Both the position numbers and the translations under genes were made by a program. From the NCBI GenBank assembly GCA_032718475.1, contig JAUCBJ010005798.1:1-52749 (forward strand): a stretch of DNA of 52,749 nt. Direction: 5' to 3'. The first letter of the stretch is position 1, and each line of letters begins with the position of its first letter. Positions 15,115-50,534 of this stretch are shown one piece after another. Below the pieces are notes generated by a model, which made no database searches, was not told the DNA's origin, and saw nothing but the letters and a program-made list of their open reading frames with translations. The DNA comes from Nemertoderma westbladi. Its lineage: Eukaryota > Animalia > Xenacoelomorpha.

Positions 15115-15133
15115 AGAAATGTATAACTGTTAT
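15115..15133 (-). promoter_or_regulatory. Non-tRNA primer-binding-site position, complementary to LTR 15850-15868
   Basis: Minus strand directly after the 5' LTR reads ATAACAGTTATACATTTCT with no TGG start. It is 18/19 complementary to minus-strand LTR sequence AGAAACGTATAACTGTTAT. Confidence 0.6.
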
Positions 15134-16730: not shown

Positions 16731-17894
16731 AATTCATTATACATTCACCCTTTTATTTGATCTTGTTGATAATTAATCTACAGTACAGGTATAACAATAA
16801 CTATTTATAACATTGTGTGAAATGAAAATTTGAGTGGATTTGTGAACCGAGCGAGCGCTGCGAGGGAGGTATACATAAATACACAAGGTTCATAAAAGCT
16901 GAATAGTGCCCCGTATAAGAAAACTGCATGTTTTTACTTCCGCTGCAGGCTATTTATTATATTTAATTAATGCACTATATTCTATAATATTGTGTTTATG
17001 TATGAATTATAATTATTTATGAATATAATATTAGCCTCATAAGTATGAAACCAAAAAATTAGTATATATAATTAAAATTATCTAATATAATTTAATACGT
17101 TTAATAATCACAAACAATTCTCAATCATTTGTGATACCTTTTTGATGCATTTTATAATATATTACTTTATTAATTCATAATTCATTACGATATTACTATA
17201 GTGACTTGCCTTCATGTACAATTATATAAATATTTCTGTTGTAATTAATTTATGACAACTCTCAATCGTGATACTGTACAGTTAATTTTCAATCATTAAT
17301 TTGCAAGAATTTTTTAAGACGCTCACCTCGCTCACCCCAGACCTGTCGCAAAAACCGATAAATCTCAATGGTATTCTAACACCCCGTATAAACATAAAAA
17401 GTTCGCTCTGAGAAGCACAAACTGTAACCCTAGCCCCAAAGCCCTTTGATCACCTGTATGCCACAGTCGCATCAGTGTCACTGAATTAACGGGAAATGTG
17501 AATCTTGCTGGCCAAGCAAAATGGGTCCGCAGAGCAAACTTTACTCACGAGAGTGTTCATTTACGCGTCCAATCGCCGTCCGAAAAATGAAACTGTAACC
17601 AGTTAATGACTGCTTTTATGGTAGAATACCCTGCCAATGTAACCTGTTCCTTTCCTTAAATTGATAATTAATCATCTTAATTTACCAATATGAGATTTGC
17701 GTCAATATTCCCCCATGTTTCCGATGTCAATACTAGTTGTGTAAAGTAATGTTTAATTTTGGAATAAAATAATAAGCCAATGACGAATGACATACAAAAC
17801 AAAATGCGGCTGGCTTACAACAGATTTTAATTTTACTACTACTGTACAGTACAACATGCAGTAGGCCTAGAGATGTTTACAAAGTTATAGAGGG

Positions 17895-18083
17895 TTAGGC
17901 TTCCCATATGGGCTTTTCGTCCTCTGTTCTTTGGCTATTGGGAACCCAGTATTGGCTATATATCAGTCTCCACGCCCACGCATCCTGCTGACACGGCGGT
18001 CGAAGGCCCCCCAAATCAGCCGGTAAATTCTCTCGCGGTAGGAGTTTATGCAGACTGGAGAGGTTGTTCGAATGTTTGTGAAT
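17895..18083 (-). CDS. Clavesin/CRALBP-like CRAL-TRIO gene, last coding exon (6)
   Basis: tttgttttag acceptor then IHKHSNNLSSLHKLLPRENLPADLGGLRPP..WAWRL..WEA* (189 nt, phase 0). Resembles clavesin [26 protein letters not shown]. Confidence 0.9.
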   Translation of the reverse strand: MHKHSNNLSSLHKLLPRENLPADLGGLRPPCQQDAWAWRLIYSQYWVPNSQRTEDEKPIWEA

Positions 18084-18897
18084 CTAAAACAAATAGGAGT
18101 TTATGCAGACTGGAGAGGTTGTTCGAATGTTTGTGAATCTAAAACAAATAGGAGTTTATGCAGACTGGAGAGGTTGTTCGAATGTTTGTGAATCTAAAAC
18201 AAATAGGAGTTTATGCAGACTGGAGAGGTTGTTCGAATGTTTGTGAATCTAAAACAAATAGGAGTTTATGCAGACTGGAGAGGTTGTTCGAATGTTTGTG
18301 AATCTAAAACAAATAGGAGTTTATGCAGACTGGAGAGGTTGTTCGAATGTTTGTGAATCTAAAACAAATAGGAGTTTATTCAGACTGGAGAGGTTGTTCG
18401 AATGTTTGTGAATCTAAAACAAATAGGAGTTTATGCAAACTGGAGAGGTTGTTCGAATGTTTGTGAATCTAAAACAAATAGGAGTTTATGCAGACTGGAG
18501 AGGTTGTTCGAATGTTTGTGAATCTAAAACAAATAGGAGTTTATGCAAACTGGAGAGGTTGTTCGAATGTTTGTGAATCTAAAACAAATAGGAGTTTATG
18601 CGGACTGGAGAGGTTGTTCGAATGTTTGTGAATCTAAAACAAATAGGAGTTTATGCAGACTGGAGAGGTTGTTCGAATGTTTGTGAATCTAAAACAAATA
18701 GGAGTTTATGCAGACTGGAGAGGTTGTTCGAATGTTTGTGAATCTAAAACAAATAGGAGTTTATGCAGACTGGAGAGGTTGTTCGAATGTTTGTGAATCT
18801 AAAACAAATAGGAGTTTATGCAGACTGGAGAGGTTGTTCGAATGTTTGTGAATCTAAAACAAATATGAGTTTATGCAGACTGGAGAGGTTGTTCGAA
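18039..18897 (-). repeat. 55-bp tandem array (~15.6 units) = acceptor plus first 45 nt of exon 6
   Basis: Period 55 (GGAGTTTATG at 18041, 18096, ...). Minus-strand unit tttgttttag|ATTCACAAACATTCGAACAACCTCTCCAGTCTGCATAAACTCCTA. Confidence 0.97.
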
Positions 18898-19083
18898 AAC
18901 TTGAGGCAAAATAGTTAGTTTAAATGCATTCTATGTGCATTATATTGTGCAATTAGGCATAATGTGCCGATGGGCATTCGGTATGGTACCACTGCAAACG
19001 CCGAATAGTGAGCGAATAGCGGTAAACTACACCAACTCCGTGGCAAACTTTATGGAATTGTGGTGTACCACCAGAATTCTAAC

Positions 19084-19245
19084 CTTTTCTTTGGATCTGG
19101 TGTTTAGAAATGGCCTAATCATAGCCAACGCCGCCTGCATAAACCACGGCGGGTTTATTAGATGAACTTCATCTATAACTATTGGTAGACTATCTTCAAG
19201 GGCGTCTACAGTTAGTTTCAGTTCCCGCACTGTTAGTTCTTTAGC
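19084..19245 (-). CDS. Clavesin-like gene, coding exon 5
   Basis: ttattttag|AKELTVRELKLTVDALEDSLPIVIDEVHLINPPWFMQAALAMIRPFLNTRSKEK|gttaga; 162 nt, phase 0-0; CRAL-TRIO VHxxNxPW..IxPFL motif. Confidence 0.92.
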
Positions 19246-19700
19246 CTAAAATAATTAAAACGAAATGAAAGATAGGAAAAATATATTGGCCTACGAAATT
19301 AAAAAGTAGAAAAATATTGATAAATATAATAATAATTCAGCTAAATTAATATAATACCGAATTATTGATCGTGATAAATTCTAAAACGTAATAATTATTT
19401 CTTATGATATATTTCTTACATTAGATTTGTAAATTGTACTTTTACATGTCTTTGAAGGCCTATATCTTTTGTATAAATTGTCAATATTACTTGACATTAT
19501 AGGCAACAAGTGTAGCGTTTAGCGCATTATATTCCAATATGGCACATTACAAATAATTTAAAACACCCCGCGTACTGTAATATTATAAAAATTGCGTTAC
19601 TTCATCTTCATAGGGCCTTATAACTTTTGGCCTACCGATATACTGCAATATTTAAAATTATAATTCAATGCGACAATCACCCACTAGATGGCGTAATCAC

Positions 19701-19830
19701 CTGATCGAATGTAAAAGAAACGAAATCGACGATGAACACGACTTTGTATGGCAACAAACAATTTACCGAATCGTCGGAAATCTTCTCAAGGGAGAGTAGC
19801 AGAGCCCGCAATACGTGGCGATATGGATAC
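19701..19830 (-). CDS. Clavesin-like gene, coding exon 4
   Basis: actttag|G-YPYRHVLRALLLSLEKISDDSVNCLLPYKVVFIVDFVSFTFDQ|gtgatt; 130 nt, phase 2-0, matching both neighbouring exons. Resembles clavesin ILRAILLSLE..FILIIDWSNFSFKQ. Confidence 0.9.
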
Positions 19831-22800
19831 CTAAAGTATATGGGGAATATTATACTGTCGGCCTACAGTAGGTACTAATAGGGAGAGTAGCAGAGCCCGC
19901 AATACCTGGCGATATGGATACCTAAAGTATATGGGGAATATTATACTGTCGGCCTACAGTAGGTACTAATAATGAGAGTAGCAGAGCCCGCAATACCTGG
20001 CGATATGGATACCTAAAGTATATGGGGAATATTATACTGTCGGCCTACAGTAGGTACTAATAAGGAGAGTAGCAGAGCCCGCAATACCTGGCGATATGGA
20101 TACCTAAAGTATATGAGTAATATTATACTGTCGGCCTACAGTAGGTACTAATAAGGAGAGTAGCAGAGCCCGCAATACCTGGCGATATGGATACCTAAAG
20201 TATATGAGTAATATTATACTGTCGCCCTACAGTAGGTACTAATAATGAGAGTAGCAGAGCCCGCAATACCTGGCGATATGGATACCTAAAGTATATGAGT
20301 AATATTATAGTGTCGGCCTACAGTAGGTACTAATAAGGAGAGTAGCAGAGCCCGCAATACCTGGCGATATGGATACCTAAAGTATATGAGTAATATTATA
20401 CTGTCGGCCTACAGTAGGTACTAATAAGGAGAGTAGCAGAGCCCGCAATACCTGGCGATATGGATACCTAAAGTATATGAGTAATATTATACTGTCGGCC
20501 TACAGTAGGTACTAATAAGGAGAGTAGCAGAGCCCGCAATACCTGGCGATATGGATACCTAAAGTATATGAGTAATATTATACTGTCGGCCTACAGTAGG
20601 TACTAATAAGGAGAGTAGCAGAGCCCGCAATACCTGGCGATATGGATACCTAAAGTATATGAGTAATATTATACTGTCGCCCTACAGTAGGTACTAATAA
20701 TGAGAGTAGCAGAGCCCGCAATACCTGGCGATATGGATACCTAAAGTATATGAGTAATATTATAGTGTCGGCCTACAGTAGGTACTAATAAGGAGAGTAG
20801 CAGAGCCCGCAATACCTGGCGATATGGATACCTAAAGTATATGAGTAATATTATACTGTCGGCCTACAGTAGGTACTAATAAGGAGAGTAGCAGAGCCCG
20901 CAATACCTGGCGATATGGATACCTAAAGTATATGAGTAATATTATAGTGTCGGCCTACAGTAGGTACTAATAAGGAGAGTAGCAGAGCCCGCAATACCTG
21001 GCGATATGGATACCTAAAGTATATGAGTAATATTATACTGTCGGCCTACAGTAGGTACTAATAAGGAGAGTAGCAGAGCCCGCAATACCTGGCGATATGG
21101 ATACCTAAAGTATATGAGTAATATTATACTGTCGGCCTACAGTAGGTACTAATAAGGAGAGTAGCAGAGCCCGCAATACGTGGCGATATGGATACCTAAA
21201 GTATATGAGTAATATTATACTGTCGGCCTACAGTAGGTACTAATAATGAGAGTAGCAGAGCCCGCAATACCTGGCGATATGGATACCTAAAGTATATGAG
21301 TAATATTATACTGTCGGCCTACAGTAGGTACTAATAAGGAGAGTAGCAGAGCCCGCAATACGTGGCGATATGGATACCTAAAGTATATGAGTAATATTAT
21401 ACTGTCGGCCTACAGTAGGTACTAATAAGGAGAGTAGCAGAGCCCGCAATACCTGGCGATATGGACACCTAAAGTATATGGGGAATATTATACTGTCGGC
21501 CTACAGTAGGTACTAATAAGGAGAGTAGCAGAGCCCGCAATACCTGGCGATATGGATACCTAAAGTATATGAGTAATATTATACTGACGGCCTATAGTAG
21601 GTACTAATAAGGAGAGTAGCAGAGCCCGCAATACCTGGCGATATGGACACCTAAAGTATATGGGGAATATTATACTGTCGGCCTACAGTAGGTACTAATA
21701 AGGAGAGTAGCAGAGCCCGCAATACCTGGCGATATGGATACCTAAAGTATATGAGTAATATTATACTGTCGGCCTACAGTAGGTACTAATAATGAGAGTA
21801 GCAGAGCCCGCAATACCTGGCGATATGGACACCTAAAGTATATGGGGAATATTATACTGTCGGCCTACAGTAGGTACTAATAAGGAGAGTAGCAGAGCCC
21901 GCAATACCTGGCGATATGGATACCTAAAGTATATGGGGAATATTATACTGTCGGCCTACAGTAGGTACTAATAAGGAGAGTAGCAGAGCCCGCAATACCT
22001 GGCGATATGGATACCTAAAGTATATGGGGAATATTATACTGTCGGCCTACAGTAGGTACTAATAATGAGAGTAGCAGAGCCCGCAATACCTGGCGATATG
22101 GACACCTAAAGTATATGGGGAATATTATACTGTCGGCCTACAGTAGGTACTAATAAGGAGAGTAGCAGAGCCCGCAATACCTGGCGATATGGATACCTAA
22201 AGTATATGAGTAATATTATACTGTCGGCCTACAGTAGGTACTAATAAGGAGAGTAGCAGAGCCCGCAATACCTGGCGATATGGACACCTAAAGTATATGG
22301 GGAATATTATACTGTCGGCCTACAGTAGGTACTAATAAGGAGAGTAGCAGAGCCCGCAATACCTGGCGATATGGATACCTAAAGTATATGAGTAATATTA
22401 TACTGTCGGCCTACAGTAGGTACTAATAATGAGAGTAGCAGAGCCCGCAATACCTGGCGATATGGACACCTAAAGTATATGGGGAATATTATACTGTCGG
22501 CCTACAGTAGGTACTAATAAGGAGAGTAGCAGAGCCCGCAATACCTGGCGATATGGATACCTAAAGTATATGAGTAATATTATACTGTCGGCCTACAGTA
22601 GGTACTAATAAGGAGAGTAGCAGAGCCCGCAATACCTGGCGATATGGACACCTAAAGTATATGGGGAATATTATACTGTCGGCCTACAGTAGGTACTAAT
22701 AAGGAGAGTAGCAGAGCCCGCAATACCTGGCGATATGGATACCTAAAGTATATGAGTAATATTATACTGTCGGCCTACAGTAGGTACTAATAAGGAGAGT

Positions 22801-25800
22801 AGCAGAGCCCGCAATACCTGGCGATATGGACACCTAAAGTATATGGGGAATATTATACTGTCGGCCTACAGTAGGTACTAATAAGGAGAGTAGCAGAGCC
22901 CGCAATACCTGGCGATATGGATACCTAAAGTATATGGGGAATATTATACTGTCGGCCTACAGTAGGTACTAATAGGGAGAGTAGCAGAGCCCGCAATACC
23001 TGGCGATATGGATACCTAAAGTATATGGGGAATATTATACTGTCGGCCTACAGTAGGTACTAATAGGGAGAGTAGCAGAGCCCGCAATACCTGGCGATAT
23101 GGATACCTAAAGTATATGAGTAATATTATACTGTCGGCCTACAGTAGGTACTAATAGGGAGAGTAGCAGAGCCCGCAATACCTGGCGATATGGATACCTA
23201 AAGTATATGGGGAATATTATACTGTCGGCCTACAGTAGGTACTAATAAGGAGAGTAGCAGAGCCCGCAATACCTGGCGATATGGATACCTAAAGTATATG
23301 GGGAATATTATACTGTCGGCCTACAGTAGGTACTAATAGGGAGAGTAGCAGAGCCCGCAATACCTGGCGATATGGATACCTAAAGTATATGAGTAATATT
23401 ATACTGTCGGCCTACAGTAGGTACTAATAAGGAGAGTAGCAGAGCCCGCAATACCTGGCGATATGGATACCTAAAGTATATGGGGAATATTATACTGTCG
23501 GCCTACAGTAGGTACTAATAAGGAGAGTAGCAGAGCCCGCAATACCTGGCGATATGGATACCTAAAGTATATGAGTAATATTATAGTGTCGGCCTACAGT
23601 AGGTACTAATAGGGAGAGTAGCAGAGCCCGCAATACCTGGCGATATGGATACCTAAAGTATATGAGTAATATTATACTGTCGGCCTACAGTAGGTACTAA
23701 TAAGGAGAGTAGCAGAGCCCGCAATACCTGGCGATATGGATACCTAAAGTATATGGGGAATATTATACTGTCGGCCTACAGTAGGTACTAATAAGGAGAG
23801 TAGCAGAGCCCGCAATACCTGGCGATATGGATACCTAAAGTATATGGGGAATATTATACTGTCGGCCTACAGTAGGTACTAATAAGGAGAGTAGCAGAGC
23901 CCGCAATACCTGGCGATATGGATACCTAAAGTATATGGGGAATATTATACTGTCGGCCTACAGTAGGTACTAATAAGGAGAGTAGCAGAGCCCGCAATAC
24001 CTGGCGATATGGATACCTAAAGTATATGAGTAATATTATACTGTCGGCCTACAGTAGGTACTAATAAGGAGAGTAGCAGAGCCCGCAATACCTGGCGATA
24101 TGGATACCTAAAGTATATGGGGAATATTATACTGTCGGCCTACAGTAGGTACTAATAAGGAGAGTAGCAGAGCCCGCAATACCTGGCGATATGGATACCT
24201 AAAGTATATGGGGAATATTATACTGTCGGCCTACAGTAGGTACTAATAAGGAGAGTAGCAGAGCCCGCAATACCTGGCGATATGGATACCTAAAGTATAT
24301 GGGGAATATTATACTGTCGGCCTACAGTAGGTACTAATAAGGAGAGTAGCAGAGCCCGCAATACCTGGCGATATGGATACCTAAAGTATATGGAGTAATA
24401 TTATACTGTCGGCCTACAGTAGGTACTAATAAGGAGAGTAGCAGAGCCCGCAATACCTGGCGATATGGATACCTAAAGTATATGGGGAATATTATACTGT
24501 CGGCCTACAGTAGGTACTAATAAGGAGAGTAGCAGAGCCCGCAATACCTGGCGATATGGATACCTAAAGTATATGGGGAATATTATACTGTCGGCCTACA
24601 GTAGGTACTAATAAGGAGAGTAGCAGAGCCCGCAATACCTGGCGATATGGATACCTAAAGTATATGGGGAATATTATACTGTCGGCCTACAGTAGGTACT
24701 AATAAGGAGAGTAGCAGAGCCCGCAATACCGGGCGATATGGATACCTAAAGTATATGGGGAATATTATACTGTCGGCCTACAGTAGGTACTAATAATGAG
24801 AGTAGCAGAGCCCGCAATACCTGGCGATATGGATACCTAAAGTATATGAGTAATATTATACTGTCGGCCTACAGTAGGTACTAATAAGGAGAGTAGCAGA
24901 GCCCGCAATACCTGGCGATATGGATACCTAAAGTATATGAGTAATATTATACTGTCGGCCTACAGTAGGTACTAATAAGGAGAGTAGCAGAGCCCGCAGT
25001 ACCTGGCGATATGGATACCTAAAGTACATGAGTAATATTATACTGTCGGCCTACAGTAGGTACAGTACTAATAAGGAGAGTAGCAGAGCCCGCAATACCT
25101 GGCGATATGGATACCTAAAGTATATGAGTAATATTATAGTGTCGGCCTACAGTAGGTACTAATAGGGAGAGTATCAGAGCCCGCAATACCTGGCGATATG
25201 GATACCTAAAGTATATGAGTAATATTATACTGTCGGCCTACAGTAGGTACTAATAAGGAGAGTAGCAGAGCCCGCAATACGTGGCGATATGGATACCTAA
25301 AGTATATGAGTAATATTATAGTGTCGGCCTACAGTAGGTACAGTACTAATAAGGAGAGTAGCAGAGCCCGCAATACCTGGCGATATGGATACCTAAAGTA
25401 TATGAGTAATATTATAGTGTCGGCCTACAGTAGGTACTAATAGGGAGAGTAGCAGAGCCCGCAATACCTGGCGATATGGATACCTAAAGTATATGAGTAA
25501 TATTATAGTGTCGGCCTACAGTAGGTACAGTACTAATAAGGAGAGTAGCAGAGCCCGCAATACCTGGCGATATGGATACCTAAAGTATATGAGTAATATT
25601 ATACTGTCGGCCTACAGTAGGTATAATAAGGAGAGTAGCAGAGCCCGCAATACCTGGCGATATGGATACCTAAAGTATATGAGTAATATTATACTGACGG
25701 CCTACAGTAGGTACTAATAAGGAGAGTAGCAGAGCCCGCAATACCTGGCGATATGGATACCTAAAGTATATGAGTAATATTATAGTGTCGGCCTACAGTA

Positions 25801-26048
25801 GGTACAGTACTAATAAGGAGAGTAGCAGAGCCCGCAATACCTGGCGATATGGATACCTAAAGTATATGAGTAATATTATACTGTCGGCCTACAGTAGGTA
25901 CTAATAAGGAGAGTAGCAGAGCCCGCAATACCTGGCGATATGGATACCTAAAGTATATGAGTAATATTATACTGTCGGCCTACAGTAGGTACTAATAAGG
26001 AGAGTAGCAGAGTCCGCAATACCTGGCGGTATGGATACCTAAAGTATA
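19791..26048 (-). repeat. 91-bp tandem array (~69 units) = intron 3' end plus first 40 nt of exon 4
   Basis: Period 91 (19791, 19882, 19973, ...). Highly homogeneous, with a few variants (ATGAGTAA/ATGGGGAA, GGATAC/GGACAC, +6-nt insertions near 25060-25810). Confidence 0.97.
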
Positions 26049-26407
26049 CAATGACCCGTAATATAGTGTCACTTTCTGATGACACGGACCCCCCCCCCCC
26101 CCCCCCCCCCCCACAAATTTTTCTACAAATCTTTATCATTTTGCTTGAAATTTGAAGCACAACTAGTTCAACTCACCGTGGTTGTTACCATGAAGCCGGA
26201 ATTTTCGATTTCGCCTTTAAATTTTATTTATAAGCGTTTTAATAAAGTGTCTTTTGCGAAATCGCACCCTCTGTATCATTGCCATTCTTCACTTTAGTCG
26301 TAATTTTTTCACATCAATAGAAAGCTTCGTTGCAAGGATTCCAAATATGTAGCAATATCTGAATTTCGTTGAGAAACAGCTGAGAAATAGTTGTTCAAGT
26401 TCATAGT

Positions 26408-26874
26408 TATTCTGGTACATGGACACCCCACCCCCCCCCCCCAAAATTTTTTACAAATCTTAATGAGATTGCATGAAATTTGAAACAGAGTTAGTTTCAC
26501 CTCCCTCCTCCTTACTGGGTGAGCAGGAATTTTTAATTTCACTTTCGTTCTTTAGCTACAAACGTTTAAAAAAAGTGTCTCCGTCGATATTGCACCAGTT
26601 ACACCGCAGTTATTCTTCAAACTTTTAGTGATGTTTTGGTACTATTGGAAAGCTGACCGTGCAAGGATTCCAAATAATAACTATGGTGTAACTGGTGCAA
26701 TATCGACTGAGAAACTTTTTTAAAACGTTTGTAGCTAAAGAACGAAAGCGAAAATAAAAATTCTGGCTCACCCAGCAAGGAGGAGGGAGGTGAAACTATA
26801 TCTGTTTCAAATTTCATGCAATCTCATTAAGATTTGTAAAAAAAATTTGGAGGGGGGGGGGAGGGTCCATGTAC
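26408..26874. repeat. Foldback/MITE-like inverted pair (~205-bp arms); older direct copy at about 26083-26350
   Basis: About 26408-26613 is the reverse complement of about 26676-26874. The right arm resumes (CAGAA) at 28511 after the LINE insertion. Confidence 0.8.
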
Positions 26875-29633: not shown

Positions 29634-29666
<33 letters not shown>

Positions 29667-29927
29667 GGACGCAATAAAAATTAATCCCTCTCCAGGGGAA
29701 ATTCGACGCAAATAACAGCTGATTATTCTCAAAAATAAAACTGTAACCTGTTCTATTGTGCTTAGTTTATTGTTTTGGTTAAAATAACGTGCCACAACTG
29801 TAACCTGCTCCTTTCCCCAAATTGAGAATTTAACATTGAGGCGGGATATTAATTCACAAGGCGGGTTTTGCGTCCAGTTTCCCCCCCTGTCTCCGAAATT
29901 ATTAATTATGACGACTTTCCAACTTAC

Positions 29928-30074
29928 TTCTGATGTGCCCAATTACCGGCGTCGATAAGAAAGAACTTTCTGTTCTGTTCGTCTCGCCAATCAGGAACCA
30001 CAGGGAATCCGTCCAATAAGGCGAGTTTCAAACCCACGTCCTCCACGTGGTAGTTACTGAATAACTCGCGGTTC
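29928..30074 (-). CDS. Clavesin-like gene, coding exon 3
   Basis: tatcttag|G-NRELFSNYHVEDVGLKLALLDGFPVVPDWRDEQNRKFFLIDAGNWAHQ-AA|gtaagt; 147 nt, phase 2-2. Resembles clavesin [32 protein letters not shown]. Confidence 0.92.
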
Positions 30075-30089
30075 CTAAGATACAAAGGT

Positions 30090-34988: not shown

Positions 34989-35147
34989 TTGTCACGAAAC
35001 CTTAAATATCTGGAGAGACAATTAGTGGCAGCGTTAATGGAATAGTTGTGAGCTTTAAGAAATTTGGCTATTTCCTTGTCATTTATCGAGTAGCTAATAC
35101 TCGGGGGGAAAACTTTGTCTGATGGTTTGCCTCACTCGATACACAGA
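34989..35147 (-). CDS. Clavesin-like gene, coding exon 2 (CRAL-TRIO N domain); apparent +1 frameshift in a C6 run
   Basis: cgtttcag|SVYRVRQTIRQSFP/PSISYSINDKEIAKFLKAHNYSINAATNCLSRYLRFRD-AA|gtgagt. Resembles DDAFILRFLRARKF..LAQYFQYR. The exon is 159 nt where flanking phases require 158. Confidence 0.8.
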
Positions 35148-35413: not shown

Positions 35414-38400
35414 ACGCTACATTGTTTACAGTACTGTGCAGTAGAGAACTCTGAGACGCTGCAATGTTACAGTACTGTGTTGTCTCGCACTCTGAGACGC
35501 TTCATTGTTACAGTACTGTGCAGTAGAGAACTCTGAGACGCTGCAATGTTACAGTACTGTGTCGTCTCGCACTCTGAGACGCTACATTGTTACAGTACTG
35601 TGCATTAGAGAACTTTGAGACGCTGCAATGTTACAGTACTGTGCCGTCTCGCACTCTGAGACGCTATATTGTTACAGTACTGTGCAGTAGAGAACTCTGA
35701 GACGCTGCAATGTTACAGTACTGTGTCGTCTCGCACTCTGAGACGCTACATTGTTACAGTACTGTGCATTAGAGAACTTTGAGACGCTGCAATGTTACAG
35801 TACTGTGCCGTCTCGCACTCTGAAACGCTACATTGTTACAGTACTGTGCCGTCTCGTACATTGAGACCTGCAGGGTAACAGTACTGTGCCGTATCGTACT
35901 CTGAGACGCTACATTGTTACAGTACTGTGCATTAGAGAACTTTGAGACGCTGCAATGTTACAGTACTGTGCCGTCTCGCACTCTGAGACGCTATATTGTT
36001 ACAGTACTGTGCAGTAGAGAACTCTGAGACGCTGCAATGTTACAGTACTGTGCCGTCTCGCACTCTGAAACGCTACATTGTTACAGTACTGTGCCGTCTC
36101 GTACATTGAGACCTGCAGGGTAACAGTACTGTGCCGTATCGTACTCTGAGACGCTACATGGTTACAGTACTGTGCAGTAGATAACTCTGAGACGCTGCAA
36201 TGTTACAGTACTGTGTCGTCTCGCACTCTGAGACGCTACATTGTTACAGTACTGTGTAGTAGAGAACTTTGAGACGCTGCAATGTTACAGTACTGTGCCG
36301 TCTCGCACTCTGAGACGCTACATTGTTACAGTACTGTGCCGTAACGTACTGAGAGACGCTGCATCGTTACAGTACTGTGCCGTCTCGTACTCTGTGACGC
36401 TACATTGTTACAGTACTGTGCCATCTCGTACTCGGATACCTGCAGGGTAACAGTACTGTGCCGTCTCGTACTCTGAGACACTACATTGTTACAGTACTGT
36501 GTAGTAGAGAACTCTGAGACGCTGCAATGTTACAGTACTGTGCCGCCTCGCACTCACTCTGAGACGCTACATTGTTACAGTACTGTGCCGTAACGTACTG
36601 AGAGACGCTGCATCGTTACAGTACTGTGCCGTCTCGTACTCTGTGACGCTACATTGTTACAGTACTGTGCCATCTCGTACTCGGATACCTGCAGGGTAAC
36701 AGTACTGTGCCGTCTCGTACTCTGAGACACTACATTGTTACAGTACTGTGTAGTAGAGAACTTTGAGACGCTGCAATGTAACAGTACTGTGCCGCCTCGC
36801 ACTCTGAGACGCTACATTGTAACAGTACTGTGCAGAAGAGAACTCTGAGACGCTGCAATGTTACAGTACTGTGCCGTCTCGCACTCTGAGACGCTACATT
36901 GTTACAGTACTGTGCCGTAACGTACTGAGAGACGCTGCATCGTTACAGTACTGTGCCGTCTCGTACTCTGTGACGCTACATTGTTACAGTACTGTGCCAT
37001 CTCGTACTCGGATACCTGCAGGGTAACAGTACTGTGCCGTCTCGTACTCTGAGACGCTACATGGTTACAATACTGTGCCGTCTCGCACTGAGAGACGCTG
37101 CAGGGTTACAGTAATGTGCCGTATCGCACTGAGAGATGCTATTTTGCACTGTTACAGTACGGTGCAGTATCGAACTCTGAGATGCTACAATGTTACAGTA
37201 CTGTGTAGTAGAGAACTCTGAGACGCTGCAATGTTACAGTACTGTGCCGCCTCGCACTCTGAGACGCTACATTGTTACAGTACTGTGCCGTAACGTACTG
37301 AGAGACGCTGCATCGTTACAGTACTGTGCCGTCTCGTACTCTGAGACGCTACATTGTTATAGTACTGTGCAGTAGAGAACTTTGAGACGCTGCAATGTTA
37401 CAGTACTGTGCCGTCTCGCACTCTGAGACGCTACATTGTTACAGCACTGTGCCGTAACGTACTGAGAGACGCTGCATCGTCACAGTACTGTGCCGTCTCG
37501 TACTCTGTGACGCTACATTGTTACAGTACTGTGCCATCTCGTACTCGGATACCTGCAGGGTAACAATACTGTGCCGTCTCGTACTCTGAGACACTACATT
37601 GTTACAGTACTGTGTAGTAGAGAACTCTGAGACGCTGCAATGTTACAGTACTGTGCCGCCTCGCACTCTGAGACGCTACATTGTTACAGTACTGTGCCGT
37701 AACGTACTATGAGACGCTGCATCGTTACAGTACTGTGCCGTCTCGTACTCTGTGACGCTACATTGTTACAGTACTGTGCCATCTCGTACTCGGATACCTG
37801 CAGGGTAGCAGTACTGTGCCGTCTCGTACTCTGAGACACTACATTGTTACAGTACTGTGTAGTAGAGAACTTTGAGACGCTGCAATGTTACAGTACTGTG
37901 CCGCCTCGCACTCTGAGACGCTACATTGTTACAGTACTGTGCAGAAGAGAACTCTGAGACGCTGCAATGTTACATTACTGTGCCGTCTCGCACTCTGAGA
38001 CGCTACATTGTTACAGTACTGTGCCGTAACGTACTGAGAGACGCTGCATCGTTACAGTACTGTGCCGTCTCGTACTCTGTGACGCTACATTGTTACAGTA
38101 CTGTGCCATCTCGTACTCGGATACCTGCAGGGTAACAGTACTGTGCCGTCTCGTACTCTGAGACGCTACATGGTTACAATACTGTGCCGTCTCGCACTGA
38201 GAGACGCTGCAGGGTTACAGTACTGTGCCGTATCGCACTGAGAGATGCTATTTTGCACTGTTACAGTACGGTGCAGTATCGAACTCTGAGACGCTACAAT
38301 GTTACAGTACTGTGTAGTAGAGAACTCTGAGACGCTGCAATGTTACAGTACTGTGCCGCCTCGCACTCTGAGACGCTACATTGTTACAGTACTGTGCCGT

Positions 38401-41400
38401 AACGTACTGAGAGACGCTGCATCGTTACAGTACTGTGCCGTCTCGTACTCTGAGACGCTACATTATTACAGTACTGTGTAGTAGAGAACTTTGAGACGCT
38501 GCAATGTTACAGTACTGTGCCGTCTCGCACTCTGAGACGCTACATTGTTACAGAAATGTGCCGTAACGTACTGAGAGACGCTGCATCGTTACAGTACTGT
38601 GCCGTCTCGTACTCTGTGACGCTACATTGTTACAGTACTGTGCCATCTCGTACTCGGATACCTGCAGGGTATCAGTACTGTGCCGTCTCGTACTCTGAGA
38701 CACTACATTGTTACAGTACTGTGTAGTAGAGAACTCTGAGACGCTGCAATGTTACAGTACTGTGCCGCCTCGCACTCTGAGACGCTACATTGTTACAGTA
38801 CTGTGCCGTAACGTACTGAGAGACGCTGCATCGTTACAGTACTGTGCCGTCTCGTACTCTGTGACGCTACATTGTTACAGTACTGTGCCATCTCGTACTC
38901 GGATACCTGCAGGGTAACAGTACTGTGCCGTCTCGCACTCTGAGACGCTACATTGTTACAGCACTGTGCCGTAACGTACTGAGAGACGCTGCATCGTCAC
39001 AGTACTGTGCCGTCTCGTACTCTGTGACGCTACATTGTTACAGTACTGTGCCATCTCGTACTCGGATACCTGCAGGGTAACAATACTGTGCCGTCTCGTA
39101 CTCTGAGACACTACATTGTTACAGTACTGTGTAGTAGAGAACTCTGAGACGCTGCAATGTTACAGTACTGTGCCGCCTCGCACTCTGAGACGCTACATTG
39201 TTACAGTACTGTGCCGTAACGTACTATGAGACGCTGCATCGTTACAGTACTGTGCCGTCTCGTACTCTGTGACGCTACATTGTTACAGTACTGTGCCATC
39301 TCGTACTCGGATACCTGCAGGGTAACAGTACTGTGCCGTCTCGTACTCTGAGACACTACATTGTTACAGTACTGTGTAGTAGAGAACTCTGAGACGCTGC
39401 AATGTTACAGTACTGTGCCGCCTCGCACTCTGAGACGCTACATTGTTACAGTACTGTGCCGTAACGTACTATGAGACGCTGCATCGTTACAGTACTGTGC
39501 CGTCTCGTACTCTGTGACGCTACATTGTTACAGTACTGTGCCATCTCGTACTCGGATACCTGCAGGGTAACAGTACTGTGCCGTCTCGTACTCTGAGACG
39601 CTACATGGTTACAATACTGTGCCGTCTCGCACTGAGAGACGCTGCAGGGTTACAGTACTGTGCCGTATCGCACTGAGAGATGCTATTTTGCACTGTTACA
39701 GTACGGTGCAGTATCGAACTCTGAGACGCTACAATGTTACAGTACTGTGTAGTAGAGAACTCTGAGACGCTGCAATGTTACAGTACTGTGCCGCCTCGCA
39801 CTCTGAGACGCTACATTGTTACAGTACTGTGCCGTAACGTACTGAGAGACGCTGCATCGTTACAGTACTGTGCCGTCTCGTACTCTGAGACGCTACATTA
39901 TTACAGTACTGTGTAGTAGAGAACTTTGAGACGCTGCAATGTTACAGTACTGTGCCGTCTCGCACTCTGAGACGCTACATTGTTACAGAAATGTGCCGTA
40001 ACGTACTGAGAGACGCTGCATCGTTACAGTACTGTGCCGTCTCGTACTCTGTGACGCTACATTGTTACAGTACTGTGCCATCTCGTACTCGGATACCTGC
40101 AGGGTATCAGTACTGTGCCGTCTCGTACTCTGAGACACTACATTGTTACAGTACTGTGTAGTAGAGAACTCTGAGACGCTGCAATGTTACAGTACTGTGC
40201 CGCCTCGCACTCTGAGACGCTACATTGTTACAGTACTGTGCCGTAACGTACTGAGAGACGCTGCATCGTTACAGTACTGTGCCGTCTCGTACTCTGTGAC
40301 GCTACATTGTTACAGTACTGTGCCATCTCGTACTCGGATACCTGCAGGGTAACAGTACTGTGCCGTCTCGCACTCTGAGACGCTACATTGTTACAGCACT
40401 GTGCCGTAACGTACTGAGAGACGCTGCATCGTCACAGTACTGTGCCGTCTCGTACTCTGTGACGCTACATTGTTACAGTACTGTGCCATCTCGTACTCGG
40501 ATACCTGCAGGGTAACAATACTGTGCCGTCTCGTACTCTGAGACACTACATTGTTACAGTACTGTGTAGTAGAGAACTCTGAGACGCTGCAATGTTACAG
40601 TACTGTGCCGCCTCGCACTCTGAGACGCTACATTGTTACAGTACTGTGCCGTAACGTACTATGAGACGCTGCATCGTTACAGTACTGTGCCGTCTCGTAC
40701 TCTGTGACGCTACATTGTTACAGTACTGTGCCATCTCGTACTCGGATACCTGCAGGGTAACAGTACTGTGCCGTCTCGTACTCTGAGACACTACATTGTT
40801 ACAGTACTGTGTAGTAGAGAACTTTGAGACGCTGCAATGTTACAGTACTGTGCCGCCTCGCACTCTGAGACGCTACATTGTTACAGTACTGTGCAGAAGA
40901 GAACTCTGAGACGCTGCAATGTTACATTACTGTGCCGTCTCGCACTCTGAGACGCTACATTGTTACAGTACTGTGCCGTAACGTACTGAGAGACGCTGCA
41001 TCGTTACAGTACTGTGCCGTCTCGTACTCTGTGACGCTACATTGTTACAGTACTGTGCCATCTCGTACTCGGATACCTGCAGGGTAACAGTACTGTGCCG
41101 TCTCGTACTCTGAGACGCTACATGGTTACAATACTGTGCCGTCTCGCACTGAGAGACGCTGCAGGGTTACAGTACTGTGCCGTATCGCACTGAGAGATGC
41201 TATTTTGCACTGTTACAGTACGGTGCAGTATCGAACTCTGAGACGCTACAATGTTACAGTACTGTGTAGTAGAGAACTCTGAGACGCTGCAATGTTACAG
41301 TACTGTGCCGCCTTGCACTCTGAGACGCTACATTGTTACAGTACTGTGCCGTAACGTACTGAGAGACGCTGCATCGTTACAGTACTGTGCCGTCTCGTAC

Positions 41401-44400
41401 TCTGAGACGCTACATTATTACAGTACTGTGTAGTAGAGAACTTTGAGACGCTGCAATGTTACAGTACTGTGCCGTCTCGCACTCTGAGACGCTACATTGT
41501 TACAGTACTGTGCCGTAACGTACTGAGAGACGCTGCATCGTTACAGTACTGTGCCGTCTCGTACTCTGTGACGCTACATTGTTACAGTACTGTGCCATCT
41601 CGTACTCGGATACCTGCAGGGTAACAGTACTGTGCCGTCTCGTACTCTGAGACACTACATTGTTACAGTACTGTGTAGTAGAGAACTCTGAGACGCTGCA
41701 ATGTTACAGTACTGTGCCGCCTCGCACTCTGAGACGCTACATTGTTACAGTACTGTGCCGTAACGTACTGAGAGACGCTGCATCGTTACAGTACTGTGCC
41801 GTCTCGTACTCTGTGACGCTACATTGTTACAGTACTGTGCCATCTCGTACTCGGATACCTGCAGGGTAACAGTACTGTGCCGTCTCGTACTCTGAGACAC
41901 TACATTGTTACAGTACTGTGTAGTAGAGAACTCTGAGACGCTGCAATGTTACAGTACTGTGCCGCCTCGCACTCTGAGACGCTACATTGTTACAGTACTG
42001 TGCCGTAACGTACTGAGAGACGCTGCATCGTTACAGTACTGTGCCGTCTCGTACTCTGTGACGCTACATTGTTACAGTACTGTGCCATCTCGTACTCGGA
42101 TACTTGCAGGGTAACAGTACTGTGCCGTCTCGTACTCTGAGACGCTACATGGTTACAATACTGTGCCGTCTCGCACTGAGAGACGCTGCAGGGTTACAGT
42201 ACTGTGCCGTATCGCACTGAGAGATGCTATTTTACACTGTTACAGTACGGTGCAGTATCGAACTCTGAGACGCTACAATGTTACAGTACTGTGCCGTTTC
42301 GTACTCTGAGACGCTACATTGTTACAGTACTGTGCCGTAACGTACTGAGAGACGCTGCATCGTTACAGTACTGTGCCGTCTCGTACTCTGTGACGCTACA
42401 TTGTTACCGTACTGTGCCGTCTCGTACTCTGACTCTGAGACGCTGCATCGATACAGTACTGTGCCGTAACGTACTGAGAGAAGCTGCATCGTTACAGTAC
42501 TGTGCCGTCTCGTACTCTGTGACGCTACATTGTTACATTACTGTTCCGCATCGTACTGAGAGATGCTATTTTGCATTGTTACAGTACTGCGCAGTATCGA
42601 ACTCTGAGACGCTACATTGTTACAGTACTGTACCGTAACGTACTGAGAGACGCTGCATCGTTACAGTACTGTGCCGTCTCGTACTCTGAGACGCTACATT
42701 GTTACAGTACTGTGCCGTAACGTACTGAGAGACGCTGCATCGTTACAGTACTATGCCGTCTCGTACTCTGAGACCTGCAGGGTAACAGTACTGTGCCGTT
42801 TCGTACTCTGAGACGCTACATTGTTACATTACTGTGCCGTAGCGTGCTGAGAGACGCTGCATCGTTACAGTACTGTGCCGTCTCGTACTTCGATACGTAC
42901 ATGGTTACAGTACTGTGCCGTCTCGTACTTCGATACGTACATGGTTACAGTACTGTGCCGTCTCGTACTTCGATACGTACATGGTTACAGTACTGTGCCG
43001 TCTCGTACTTCGATACGTACATGGTTACAGTACTGTGCCGTCTCGTACTACGATACGTACATGGTTACAGTAATGGTTACAGTACTGTGCCGTCTCGTAC
43101 TCTGAGACGCTGCAGGATAACAGTACTGTGCCGTCTCGTACTCTGAGACGGTACAATGTTACAGTAGTGTGCCGTAGCGTACTGAGAGACGCTGCATCGT
43201 TACAGTGCTGTGCCGTAGCGTACTGAGAGACGCTGCATCGTTACAGTACTGTGCTGTAGCGTACTGAGAGACGCTGGTAGGGTTACAGTACTGTGCCGTC
43301 TCGTACTCTGCGACGCTACATTGTTACAGTACTGTGCCGTCTCGTACTGAGATACGCTGTATCGTTACATTACTATGCCGTCTCGTACTCTGAGACCTGC
43401 AGGGTAACAGTACTGTGCCGTCTCGTACTCTGAGACGCTACATTGTTACAGTACTGTGCCGTCTCGTACTGAGAGATGCTGCAGGGTAACAGTACTGTGC
43501 CGTCTCGTACTCTGCGACGCTACATTGTTACAATACTGTGCTGTCTCGTACTGAGAGACGCTGCATCGTTACATTACTATGCCGTCTCGTACTCTGAGAC
43601 CTGCAGGGTAACAGTACTGTGCCGTCTCGTACTCATAGACGTTGGAGGGTAACAGTACTGTGCCGTCTCGTACTCTGCGACGCTACATTGTAACAGTACT
43701 GTGCCGTCTCGTACTGAGAGACGCTGCATCGTTACATTACTATGCCTTCTCGTACTCTGAGACCTGCAGGGTAGCAGTTCTGTGCCGTCTCGTACTCATA
43801 GACGCTGCAGGGTAACAGTACTATGCCGTCTCGTACTCTGCGACGCTACATTGTTACAGTACTGTGCCGTCTTGTACTGAGAGACGCTGCATCGTTACAT
43901 TACTATGCCGTCTCGTACTCTGAGACGCTGCAGGGTAACAGTACTGTGCCGTCTCGTACTCTGACACGCTACATTGTTACAGTACTGTGCCGTCTCGTAC
44001 TGAGAGACGCTGCAGGGTAACAGTACTGTGCCGTCTCGTAATCTGCGACGCCTCATTGTTACAGTACTGTGCTGTCTCGTACTGAGAGATGCTGCATCGT
44101 TACATTACTATGCCGTCTCGTACTCTGAGATCTGCAGGGTAACAGTACTGTGCCGTCTCGTACTCATAGACGTTGGAGGGTAACAGTACTATGCCGTCTC
44201 GTACTCTGCGACGCTACATTGTAACAGTACTGTGCCGTCTCGTACTGAGAGACGCTGTATCATTACATTACTATGCCGTCTCGTACTCTGAGATCTGCAG
44301 GGTAACAGTACTGTGCCGTCTCGTACTCATAGACGTTGGAGGGTAACAGTACTATGCCGTCTCGTACTCTGCGACGCTACATTGTTACAGTACTGTGCAG

Positions 44401-47400
44401 TAGAGAACTCTGAGACGCTGGTAGGGTTACAGTACTGTGCCGTTTCGTACTCTGTGACGCTACATTGTTACAGTACTGTGCCGTTTCGCACTGAGAGACG
44501 CTACATTGTTACAGTACTGTGCTGTAGCGTACTGAGAGACGCTGGTAGGGTTACAGTACTGTGCCGTCTCGTACTCTGTGACGCTACATTGTTACAGTAC
44601 TGTGCCATCTCGTACTCGGATACCTGCAGGGTAACAGTACTGTGCCGTCTCGTACTCTGAGACGCTACATGGTTACAATACTGTGCCGTCTCGCACTGAG
44701 AGACGCTGCAGGGTTACAGTACTGTGCCGTATCGCACTGAGAGATGCTATTTTGCACTGTTACAGTACGGTGCAGTATCGAACTCTGAGACGCTACAATG
44801 TTACAGTACTGTGCCGTTTCGTACTCTAAGACGCTACATTGTTACAGTACTGTGCCGTAACGTACTGAGAGACGCTGCATCGTTACAGTACTGTGCCGTC
44901 TCGTACTCTGTGACGCTACATTGTTACCGTACTGTGCCGTCTCGTACTCTGACTCTGAGACGCTGCATCGATACAGTACTGTGCCGTAACGTACTGAGAG
45001 AAGCTGCATCGTTACAGTACTGTGCCGTCTCGTACTCTGTGACGCTACATTGTTACATTACTGTTCCGCATCGTACTGAGAGATGCTATTTTGCATTGTT
45101 ACAGTACTGCGCAGTATCGAACTCCGAGACGCTACAATGTTACAGTACTGTGCCGTCTCGTACTCTGAGACGCTACATTGTTACAGTACTGTACCGTAAC
45201 GTACTGAGAGACGCTGCATCGTTACAGTACTGCGCCGTCTCGTACTCTGAGACGCTACATTGTTACAGCACTGTGCCGTAACGTACTGAGAGACGCTGCA
45301 TCGTTACAGTACTATGCCGTCTCGTACTCTGAGACCTGCAGGGTAACAGTACTGTGCCGTTTCGTACTCTGAGACGCTACATTGTTACATTACTGTGCCG
45401 TAGCGTGCTGAGAGACGCTGCATCGTTACAGTACTGTGCCGTCTCGTACTTCGATACGTACATGGTTACAGTACTGTGCCGTCTCGTACTTCGATACGTA
45501 CATGGTTACAGTACTGTGCCGTCTCGTACTTCGATACGTACATGGTTACAGTACTGTGCCGTCTCGTACTTCGATACGTACATGGTTACAGTACTGTGCC
45601 GTCTCGTACTACGATACGTACATGGTTACAGTAATGGTTACAGTACTGTGCCGTCTCGTACTCTGAGACGCTGCAGGATAACAGTACTGTGCCGTCTCGT
45701 ACTCTGAGACGGTACAATGTTACAGTAGTGAGCCGTAGCGTACTGAGAGACGCTGCATCGTTACAGTGCTGTGCCGTAGCGTACTGAGAGACGCTACATT
45801 GTTACAGAACTGTGCCGTCTCGTACTGAGAGACGCTGCAGGGTAACAGTACTGTGCCGTCTCGTACTCTGCGACGCTACATTGTTACAATACTGTGCTGT
45901 CTCGTACTGAGAGACGCTGCATCGTTACATTACTATGCCGTCTCGTACCCTGAGACCTGCAGGGTAACAGTACTGTGCCGTCTCGTACTCATAGATGCAG
46001 CAGGGTAACAGTACTGTGCCGAGTCGTACTCTGCGACGCTACATTGTAACAGTACTGTGCCGTCTCGTACTGAGAGACGCTGCATCGTTACATTACTATG
46101 CCGTCTCGTACTCTGAGACCTGCAGGGTAACAGTACTGTGCCGTCTCGTACTCATAGATGCAGCAGGGTAACAGTACTGTGCCGAGTCGTACTCTGCGAC
46201 GCTACATTGTAACAGTACTGTGCCGTCTCGTACTGAGAGACGCTGCATAGTTACATTACTATGCCTTCTCGTACTCTGAGACCTGCAGGGTAGCAGTTCT
46301 GTGCCGTCTCGTACTCATAGACGCTGCAGGGTAACAGTACTATGCCGTCTCGTACTCTGCGACGCTACATTGTTACAGTACTGTGCCGTCTTGTACTGAG
46401 AGACGCTGCATCGTTACATTACTATGCCGTCTCGTACTCTGAGACGCTGCAGGGTAACAGTACTGTGCCGTCTCGTACTCTGACACGCTATATTGTTACA
46501 GTACTGTGCCGTCTCGTACTGAGAGACGCTGCAGGGTAACAGTACTGTGCCGTCTCGTACTCTGACACGCTATATTGTTACAGTACTGTGCCGTCTCGTA
46601 CTGATAGACGCTGCAGGGTAACAGTACTGTGCCGTCTCGTACTCTGCGACGCTACATTGTTACAGTACTGTGCTGTCTCGTACTGAGAGACGCTGCATCG
46701 TTACATTACTATGCCGTCTCGTACTCTGAGATCTGCAGGGTAACAGTACTGTGCCGTCTCGTACTGAGAGACGCTGCAGGGTAACAGTACTGTGCCGTCT
46801 CGTACTCTGACACGCTATATTGTTACAGTACTGTGCCGTCTCGTACTGATAGACGCTGCAGGGTAACAGTACTGTGCCGTCTCGTACTCTGCGACGCTAC
46901 ATTGTTACAGTACTGTGCCGTCTCGTACTGAGAGACGCTGCATCGTTACATTACTATGCCGTCTCGTACTCTGAGACCTGCAGGCTAACATTACTGTGCC
47001 GTCTCGTACTCATAGACGCTGCAGGGTAACAGTACTATGCCGTCTCGTACTCTGCGACGCTACATTGTTACAGTACTGTGCCGTTTCGCACTGAGAGACG
47101 CTGCATCGTTACATTACAATGCCGTCTCGTACTCTGAGACCAGCAGGGTAGCAGTACTGTGCCGTCTCGTACTCTGAGACGCTGCAGGGTAACAGTAACT
47201 CTGAGATGCTACATTGTTACAGTACTGTGCAGTAGAGAACTCTGAGACGCTGCAATGTTACAGTATTGTGCCGTCTCGTTACAGTACTGTGCCGTAACGT
47301 ACTGAGAGACGATGCATCGTTACAGTACTGTGCCGTCTCGCACTGAGAGACGATACATCGTTACAGTACTGTGCCGTCTCGCACACCGAGACGCTGCAAG

Positions 47401-50093
47401 ATTACATTAATGTGCCGTCTCGCACTCTGAGACGCTGCTGAGTTACATTACTGTGCCTTCTCGAATTCGGAGACGCTGCAGGGTTACAGTACTGTGCCGT
47501 CTCACACACCGAGACGCTGCAAGATTACATTATTGTGCCGTCTCAAATTCGGAAACGCTACAGGTATACAGTACTGTGCCGTCTCGCACACCGAGACGCT
47601 GCAAGATTACATTACTGTGCTGTCTCGAATTCGGAGACGCTACAGGGTTACAGTACTGTGCCGTCTCGCACTCTGAGACGCTGCTGGTTTACAGTACTGT
47701 GTCGTTTCGAATTCGGAGACACTACAGGGTTACAGTACTGTGCCGTCTCGCACTCTGAGACGCTGCTGGGTTACATTACTGTGCCGTCTCGCACTCTGAG
47801 ACGTTGCTGGATTACATTACTGTACCGTCATGTACTGAGAGACGTTGTAGGGTTACAGTACTGTGACGTCTCGCACACCGAGACGCCGCCAAGATTACAT
47901 TACTGTGCCGTCTCGCACTCTGAGACGCTGCTGGGTTACATTACTGTGCCGTCTCGAATTCGGAGACCCTGCAAGGTTACAGTACTGTGCCGTCTCGCAC
48001 ACCGAGACACTGCAAGATTACATTACTGTGCCGTCTCGAATTCGGAGACGCTGCAGGGTTACAGTACTGTGCCGTCTCGCACTCTGAGACGCTGCTGGGT
48101 TACAATACTGTGCCGTCTCGCACTCTGAGACGCTGCTGGGTTACATTACTGTGCCGTCTCGCACTCTGAGACGCTGTAGGGTTACAGTACAGTGTCGTTT
48201 CGAATTCGGAGACGCTGCAAGATTACATTACTGTGCCGCCTCGAATTCGGAGACGCTACAGGGTTACAGTACTGTGCCGTCTCGCACTCTGAGACGCTGC
48301 TGGGTTATAGTACTGTGTCGTTTCGAATTCGGAGACGCTACAGGGTTACAGTACTGTACCGTCTTGCACTCTGAGACGCTGCAGGGTTACAGTACTGTGT
48401 CGTTTCGAATTCGGAGACGCTACAGGTTTACAGTACTGTGCCGTCTCGCACACCGAGACCCTGAAAGATGACATTACTGTGCCGTCTCGAATTCGGAGAC
48501 GCTACAGTGTTATATTACTGTGCCGTCTCGCACTCTGAGACGCTTGTGGGTTACAGTACTGTGTCGTTTCGAATTCGGAGACGCTACAGGATTACAGTAC
48601 TGTGCCGTCTCGCACACCGAGACGCTGCAAGATTACATTACTGTGCCGTCTCGCACACCGAGACGCTGCAAGATTACATTACTGTGCGGGCTCGATTTCG
48701 GAGACGCTGCAGGGTTACAGCACTGTGCCGTCTCGAATTCGGAGACGCTGCAGAGTTAAAGTACTGTGCCGTCTCGCACTCTGAGACGCTGCTGGGTTAC
48801 ATTACTGTGCCGTTTCGAATTCGGAGACGCTACAGGGTTACAGTACTGTGCCGTCTCGCACTCTGAGACGCTGCTGGGTTACAATACTGTGCCGTCTCGC
48901 ACTCTGAGACGCTGCTGGGTTACATTACTGTGCCGTCTCGCACTCTGAGACGCTGCTGGGTTACATTATTGTGCCGTCATGTACTGAGAGACGCTGTAGG
49001 GTTACAGTACTGTGCCGTCTCGCACACCGAGACGCTGCAATATTACATTACTGTGCCGTCTCGCATTCTGAGACGCTGCTGGGTTACATTACTGTTCCGT
49101 CTCGCACTCTGAGACGTTGCTGGGTTACATTACTGTGCCGTCATGTACTGAGAGACGCTGTAGGGTTACAGTACTGTGCCGTCTCGCACACCGAGACGCT
49201 GCAAGATTACATTACTGTGCCGTCTCGCACTCTGAGACGCTGCTGGGTTACATTACTGTGCCGTCTCGCACTCTGAGACGCTGCTGGGTTACATTACTGT
49301 GCCGTCATGTACTGAGAGACGCTGTAGGGTTACAGTACTGTGCCGTCTCGCACACCGAGACGCTGCAAGATTACATTACTGTGCCGTCTCGCACTCTGAG
49401 ACGCTGCTGGGTTACATTACTGTGCCGTCATGTACTGAGAGACGCTGTAGGGTTACAGTACTGTGCCGTCTCGCACACCGAGACGCTGCAAGATTACATT
49501 ACTGTGCCGTCTCGCATTCTGAGACGCTGCTGGGTTACATTACTGTGCCATCTCGCACTCTGAGACGTTGCTGGGTTACATTACTGTGCCGTCATGTACT
49601 GAGAGACGCTGTAGGGTTACAGTACTGTGCCGTCTCGCACACCGAGACGCTGCAAGATTACATTACTGTGCCGTCTCGCATTCTGAGACGCTGCTGGGTT
49701 ACATTACTGTGCCATCTCGCACTCTGAGACGTTGCTGGGTTACATTACTGTGCCGTCATGTACTGAGAGACGCTGTAGGGTTAAAGTACTGTGCCGTCTC
49801 GCACAACGAGACGCTGCAAGATTACATTACTGTGCCGTCTCGCACTCTGAGACGCTGCTGGGTTACATTACTGTGCCGTCTCGCACTCTGAAACGCTGCT
49901 GGGTTACATTACTGTGCCGTCATGTACTGAGAGACGCTGTAGGGTTACAGTACTGTGCCGTCTCGCACACCGAGACGCTGCAAGATTACATTACTGTGCC
50001 GTCTCGCACTCTGAGACGCTGCTGGGTTACATTACTGTGCCGTCATGTACTGAGAGACGCTGTAGGGTTACAGTACTGTGCCGTGCCGTCTCG
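35414..50093. repeat. 41-bp satellite (~360 units, 14.7 kb) with higher-order structure, filling the intron between coding exons 1 and 2
   Basis: Consensus GTTACAGTACTGTGCCGTCTCGTACTCTGAGACGCTACATT, with 40-bp variants. Identical or near-identical ORF-track peptides recur at offsets 245, 1435, 2952 and about 2520. Confidence 0.97.
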
Positions 50094-50138: not shown

Positions 50139-50534
50139 CCTTCCAATATTAGGGGCGTCTTTCTTCCAGTCATCATCTTTTTCTAAAGTGTTTCTGTTGA
50201 AGACATCGAGATCTCCGTCATCGTCGTCACTGTTTCTGGTGAGTTCTCCGGAACCGGAAGCAGATAGTCTGTAGTCAGTGCTGCTAGACGACGCTAGGTA
50301 GTCGGTACCGGTCGTCCTAGATGTTCCGGTATTCTTTGACGAATAGTTTGTTTCGGAAGACGCCGATGAGTAACCAGCGGACAACGAGTGTCGAGTGATT
50401 GGGGAGTATTTGGGGATGTCGTAGTGGGAATTAGTTTCCCAAATATCCGGTTGAGTTAGTCGGCGGAATCTCGCGGATATAGCGGAGGTTAACGTAGATG
50501 CCGACCGACGTAACTGCGGTCTATCAGTTGTCAT
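50139..50534 (-). CDS. Clavesin-like gene, first coding exon (Ser/Thr-rich extension plus start of CRAL-TRIO N)
   Basis: ccatatag|ACGGGTCACC-ATG (acceptor at 50545-50546, good Kozak context); open for 132 codons to donor AGG|gttagt (phase 0). The end NTLEK..P..GR joined to SVYRVRQTI aligns by eye to clavesin ETIEK..P..DIQQVRDMI. Confidence 0.75.

Follow-up and report, generated by a model that had tools for sequence, protein, structure and literature searches.

Two mirage-type minisatellites at 3′ splice junctions of one CRAL-TRIO gene in Nemertoderma westbladi

The window, which is the whole 52,749 nucleotides of contig JAUCBJ010005798.1 (assembly GCA_032718475.1) from Nemertoderma westbladi, carries on its minus strand a CRAL-TRIO gene with six exons, in which every intron is GT-AG. 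Six runs are listed, five of which contain the stretch, and short-read contigs were taken from four: X1 and X2 are from sample S1, X3 is from S2, and X4 is from S3. In the order of transcription, the exons and the tandem arrays of the gene are as follows.

50139..50534, minus strand: coding part of exon 1, from a presumed ATG to a phase-0 donor; no Pfam match
35414..50084, no strand assigned: 41-bp satellite in intron 1; 14.7 kb, about 357 copies, 79 % matches
34989..35147, minus strand: exon 2; window length 159 nt, against 158 nt in both the X4 transcript contig and the X1 DNA contig
29928..30074, minus strand: exon 3; 147 nt, phase 2 to 2; X4 shows it spliced to exons 2 and 4
19791..26048, minus strand: 91-bp mirage array, intron 3; 68.5 copies and 97 % matches by TRF, 69 acceptors
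19701..19830, minus strand: exon 4; 130 nt, phase 2 to 0
19084..19245, minus strand: exon 5; 162 nt, CRAL_TRIO (PF00650), E 4.1e-09
18039..18897, minus strand: 55-bp mirage array, intron 5; 15.6 copies and 98 % matches by TRF, 15 acceptors
17895..18083, minus strand: coding part of exon 6, the last exon, ending at the stop codon

Family membership is clear from exon 5, which alone scores 36.9 bits against a curated cut-off of 22.6 for Pfam PF00650. Exon 6 has a weak CRAL_TRIO match (E 0.29) and exon 2 only a sub-threshold CUE match, while the other three of the six exon pieces searched against Pfam have no match. Matches in the PDB are to retinaldehyde-binding protein 1 (RLBP1/CRALBP) and alpha-tocopherol transfer protein (TTPA), and the best of 26 HMMER hits, named clavesin-2-like, is 47 % identical over exon 5; when homologues of exon 5 were sought among longer proteins, none of the eight candidates scored. 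Exon 2 has a weak tblastn match to two of six homologues. From these similarities the product is predicted to be a lipid-binding protein of the TTPA, RLBP1, or clavesin kind. It shares with other CRAL-TRIO lipid-binding proteins the PF00650 domain and, by alignment with clavesin-like homologues, the colinearity of exons 2–6. It differs from them in its divergence (31–47 % identity over exon 5) and in a 132-residue first exon, rich in Ser, Thr, and Asp, that belongs to no known family.

Exons 3–6 comprise 209 codons with no internal stop, in agreement with an earlier reading, made from the sequence only, in which the frame was described as intact and phase-consistent. In the window, exon 2 carries one surplus base within a G6 run (35103–35108), which shifts the frame. 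The surplus base is absent from the X1 DNA contig and from the spliced X4 contig; in X3 both contigs, of depth 2, break at the run, and X2 has no contig there. It is likely to be a homopolymer error of the assembly; with the base removed the frame is 1182 nt long and encodes 393 residues. There were no Rfam matches to structured RNA in positions 17000–36000.

One unbroken contig of 1279 nt from X4 runs over exons 1–6, and each exon start occurs in it once. It covers about 381 nt of exon 1, whose 3′ end is spliced to exon 2, and it joins exon 2 to exon 3 and exon 3 to position 19830, the last acceptor of the 91-bp array. It then omits intron 4 and passes from exon 5 into one copy of the exon 6 start and on into unique exon 6. 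No listed run is recorded as RNA; contig set X4 is labelled ‘DNA?’ and is read here as RNA because it has exons only, with introns skipped at GT-AG. A processed retrocopy was considered as its source and rejected, due to the absence of intron cover in X4 (13 of 30 bins covered). The gene is therefore spliced, and its terminal acceptors are used, in one transcript contig from a sample whose own arrays were not seen and in contigs that drop rare forms. This answers the question, raised by the sequence-only reading, of whether the gene is transcribed, and bears out its claim that the transcript-downstream unit of each array is the true exon start.

In X1, X2, and X3 alike, one contig of about 950 nt lies between the two arrays and ends just inside both, and high-depth contigs loop back on themselves with periods of 55 and 91. 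Both arrays and both inner junctions thus exist in the DNA of two samples from two studies, one of which could be the source of the window; all three sets differ from the window at 19506. The depth ratio of unit to single-copy sequence is about 5–17 for the 55-bp array and 17–25 for the 91-bp array, well above single-copy. Contig depth was tried as a measure of copy number and dropped, since X1 and X2 disagree though they come from one sample. Since none of the listed contigs reaches across a whole array, exact lengths are those given by the assembly. The high-depth 91-bp unit in X1–X3 lacks a variant that is carried by 28 of the 69 window units, which hints at turnover of the array between individuals, given that contigs drop variants. 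The upstream array ends in the S1 contigs also differ from the window, and it is probable that the arrays vary between individuals.

In transcript orientation (minus strand), the 55-bp unit consists of the last 10 nt of the intron, including its AG, and the first 45 nt of exon 6. The 91-bp unit consists of 51 nt of intron end and the first 40 nt of exon 4. Fifteen AG junctions are intact in the 55-bp array and 69 in the 91-bp array; the last unit of each is the real start of exon 6 or exon 4, so that 14 and 68 acceptors, respectively, are decoys. Searched across the window, neither unit has a match beyond its own array. TRF and these searches confirm the two unrelated units and their periods as first described, each an intron 3′ end with AG plus 40–45 nt of the next exon, and the decoy counts of about 14 and about 68 given earlier prove to be exact. 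The unit ends, at −10/+45 and −51/+40, lie off the splice sites and differ between the arrays. At its upstream edge the 55-bp array begins within an exon-derived fragment, with an outermost copy that lacks an acceptor, and the outermost 91-bp unit retains just 10 nt of its intron part. With 10 nt of intron per unit and the outermost acceptor lost, the branch region of the working exon 6 acceptor would now have to be exon-derived.

The X4 contig has no branch at either array acceptor. Its word length is 31 letters, less than the 45 and 40 nt of exon that the units contain, and frequent use of decoys would therefore be expected to break the contig. Use of any of the 68 decoys of the 91-bp array brings an in-frame stop ahead of the exon 4 donor; exon 4 is 130 nt long from the last acceptor and 221 and 312 nt from the next two upstream. 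Likewise, all 14 decoys of the 55-bp array lead to a stop after 30 codons instead of 62. Since every decoy (82) gives an early stop, decoys cannot add modules to the protein.

Among the 68 complete 91-bp units, 23 sequence types can be distinguished, arranged in ordered patterns. Identical types recur at lags of two and four units, with 17 identical pairs each (shuffle p 0.0002 for lag 2; reached in 0 of 5000 shuffles for lag 4), the pattern that repeated slippage or unequal exchange would leave. The inner units show concerted evolution, with about 2.0–2.6 differences per unit pair, and the outermost are altered. The RNA-sense strand is C-rich in both arrays (skew −0.50 and −0.18). Recursive splice sites read AG|GT, from which splicing re-creates a functional donor, and they leave intermediates in nascent RNA. 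In the 91-bp array every one of the 69 acceptors reads AG|GT, in a poor donor context, and in the 55-bp array none does; recursive splicing would therefore not be common to both, and no sign of recursive steps was found.

Several further observations concern the 91-bp array. In most of its decoys a donor-like site lies 16 nt inside the exon part (63 counts), corresponding to position 19815 in the window; it is absent from the true exon 4 in the window and in X4 (a His instead of a Gln codon). Contig ends in X1–X3 hint at a differing terminal unit near 19815, a difference that conversion between the array and the exon could account for. At its upstream end the array adjoins a short sequence resembling a transposon end (26049–26085), joined at TATA inside the unit. 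Contigs of X1 and X2, with loose ends at 19836 and 19864, have a similar transposon-like end in inverted orientation, attached to the remainder of the unit, and in an X2 contig of depth 8.8 the intron part of the unit continues into unique DNA that is absent from the window. The upstream boundary of the array may differ between alleles.

Elsewhere in intron 3, upstream of this array, there is an imperfect, MITE-like palindrome of 460 bp (26415–26874) and a broken reverse-transcriptase fragment (26910–28546), which we take to be LINE-like. Outside the gene, a direct repeat of 1171 bp, 98.7 % identical between its copies at 2188–3358 and 15133–16303, encloses broken ORFs at 7629–12226 on the minus strand, presumably related to BEL/Pao gag-protease, and an ORF at 4994–5716 that we assume to be transposase-like. 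TRF also finds tandem repeats at 12322–12560 and 12808–13407, with periods of about 121 and 143–155.

Of the 32640 bp of the gene, 21703 (66 %) are tandem array. The 41-bp satellite of intron 1, its largest array, spans no junction, lying 54 nt from the donor and 266 nt from the acceptor, and serves as an internal control. Junction copies are present at two of the five acceptors and at none of the five donors of the gene, and a search for older, decayed mirages at the remaining eight of the ten junctions found none. When three arrays were seeded uniformly on an 11-kb collapsed gene, with exon-internal seeds excluded, the probability of at least two spanning an acceptor was 0.0025, and that of at least two spanning any junction 0.01; these values are post hoc, as the window was picked for the feature. 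The first value is suggestive of non-random seeding, with the same post hoc reserve and in a gene rich in tandem array.

Taken together, the two arrays are head-to-tail copies of splice junctions in a spliced CRAL-TRIO gene, and they probably began as ordinary duplications, grew by slippage, and are tolerated through choice of the last acceptor. The seed would have been a short local head-to-tail duplication of DNA across the junction of intron end and exon start, with subsequent expansion and turnover by slippage or unequal crossover. At exon 4 the last acceptor would be chosen by pairing with the exon 4 donor, defining an exon of 130 nt, and at exon 6 through pairing with 3′-end processing. 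Upstream copies would be removed as intron, and the arrays thereby tolerated. Rare decoy products of the 91-bp array would be cleared by nonsense-mediated decay via their early stops, and rare decoy use at the 55-bp array, which precedes the last exon, would give a truncated protein. The C-rich sense strand, the unit ends away from splice sites, and the block-wise turnover fit ordinary minisatellite slippage. The explanation has its weak side: edge microhomology, or a remnant of an ancestral acceptor, at the upstream array edges does not exceed background (shuffle p 0.12 and 0.33; scores as good in 100 of 1811 and 501 of 1809 intron windows), nor does either unit fold better than its shuffles (z 0.77 and 0.31), as hairpin-driven slippage would predict. 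These negative results for the seed event count against ordinary duplication, as do the uniform-seed probability of 0.0025 and the split of two acceptors in five against no donors in five.

An artefact of assembly, or a dead gene with nothing to bypass, is barely credible as an alternative. The surplus base in exon 2 and the reliance of array lengths on the assembly alone speak in its favour, but X1 and X4 lack the surplus base, both periods and inner junctions recur in short-read DNA contigs of S1 (X1 and X2) and S2 (X3) at well above single-copy depth, and the 23 ordered unit types would not be expected of an artefact. For the existence of the arrays this explanation, which the sequence-only reading had itself named as a possible refutation, is largely refuted. 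It is also very improbable that copy number is a selected dial, in which more decoys bring more non-productive splicing and so lower output; the sequence-only reading had suggested a tolerated dial. The early stop from every decoy and the probable variation between individuals, with the 28-unit variant missing in X1–X3 and other upstream ends in S1, speak for such a dial. Against it, the sole transcript contig is unbranched at both acceptors, and lancelet mirages leave splicing undisturbed in the available text of PMC3902484 and PMC3087553; no evidence for a dial was found.

A more substantial competitor, still unlikely, is that seeds are preferentially born at 3′ splice sites, through a bias from transcription, from pausing coupled to splicing, or from a step in chromatin or base composition at intron ends, with growth and tolerance as under ordinary duplication. 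The uniform-seed probability and the excess at acceptors over donors favour such a bias, as do the repeated lancelet cases, the mechanism of which their authors call unclear in the available part of PMC3087553. There are only two events here, however, chosen post hoc, and the largest array of the gene avoids junctions. In addition, the available texts describe donor-side cases, in F7 IVS7 (PMC1557585) and in BflGb9 (PMC3087553). The shared architecture of the two arrays, formerly thought to point to a special mechanism at 3′ splice junctions, does not support one, since any tandem copying across an acceptor must, by its geometry, extend upstream only and end in the true exon. As the unit ends match neither the splice sites nor each other, the unit corresponds to neither a lariat nor an mRNA, and this, with the block-wise turnover of 91-bp units, argues against a splicing product or rolling-circle origin. 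R-loops favour G-rich RNA, and the C-rich sense strand is the wrong way round for a sense R-loop. A literature search found no report of acceptor-biased birth of minisatellites among the matches listed, which cover few subscription journals. It is doubtful that a splice-linked mutational bias gives birth to minisatellites at 3′ splice sites and that, in combination with it, a last-site rule skips up to 68 near-identical acceptors, also at a terminal exon with an exon-derived branch region.

Under the preferred explanation of ordinary duplication and slippage, the arrays are likely to be harmless. They offer a test bed for 3′ splice-site choice, as one transcript has 68 near-identical decoys ahead of an internal exon and 14 ahead of its last, and such arrays trip assemblers and gene predictors. 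If preferential birth at acceptors held genome-wide, it would bear on the origin of mirages, called unclear in the available text of PMC3087553, and on a proposed route to intron gain.

Both arrays belong to a repeat type already published, the ‘mirage’ minisatellites of amphioxus, which are described in the accessible text of Ebner et al. (PMC3087553) as intron/exon boundaries copied in tandem, in genes that are still regularly spliced, with unstable length and divergent boundary units. In the present arrays the head-to-tail unit likewise spans an intron/exon boundary, as confirmed by the X4 contig, the extra units keep their splice signals, and the outer units are divergent. Regular splicing is preserved in the one spliced contig, from a sample whose array genotype was not seen and with rare forms dropped. 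As to haplotype differences, the major unit and the upstream ends differ between the window and X1–X3, with contig depth giving no copy number. In the portions available of PMC3087553 and PMC3902484, amphioxus mirages are named in the globins BflGb6 and BflGb9, Adh3, troponin C, and PGBD5, and somatic instability is reported for Adh3 only; the available part of PMC7490669 has nothing further on splicing. The closest likeness in position is to BflGb6, an acceptor-side mirage of three and six units in a normally spliced gene, each unit made up of an intron 3′ end and the beginning of the exon after it (PMC3087553, as available), and PGBD5 of the lancelet, with two such repeats, also has more than one array per gene (PMC3902484, as available). 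The present case differs from the amphioxus mirages in scale, with 69 copies at the 91-bp array against three to seven in the available texts (PMC3087553; PMC3902484), and in that both arrays are on the acceptor side, one of them ahead of the last exon.

Human parallels are found in the available parts of three further sources. The 37-bp VNTR of F7 IVS7 also has an end unit across an exon–intron boundary and identical splice sites that stay silent, unlike the present arrays in being on the donor side, where the first site is chosen by an experimentally tested scanning rule (PMC1557585). The CBS c.844_845ins68 allele duplicates a junction that is an intron end, though the source text says ‘donor’, and unlike the present arrays has two copies only, with no expanded array (PMC2630376). 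Internal tandem repeats at exon–intron boundaries are also described in human duplicated genes (PMC2812944). Beside these systems, the Nemertoderma arrays are a large and well-supported example of a known repeat type, present twice in one working gene.
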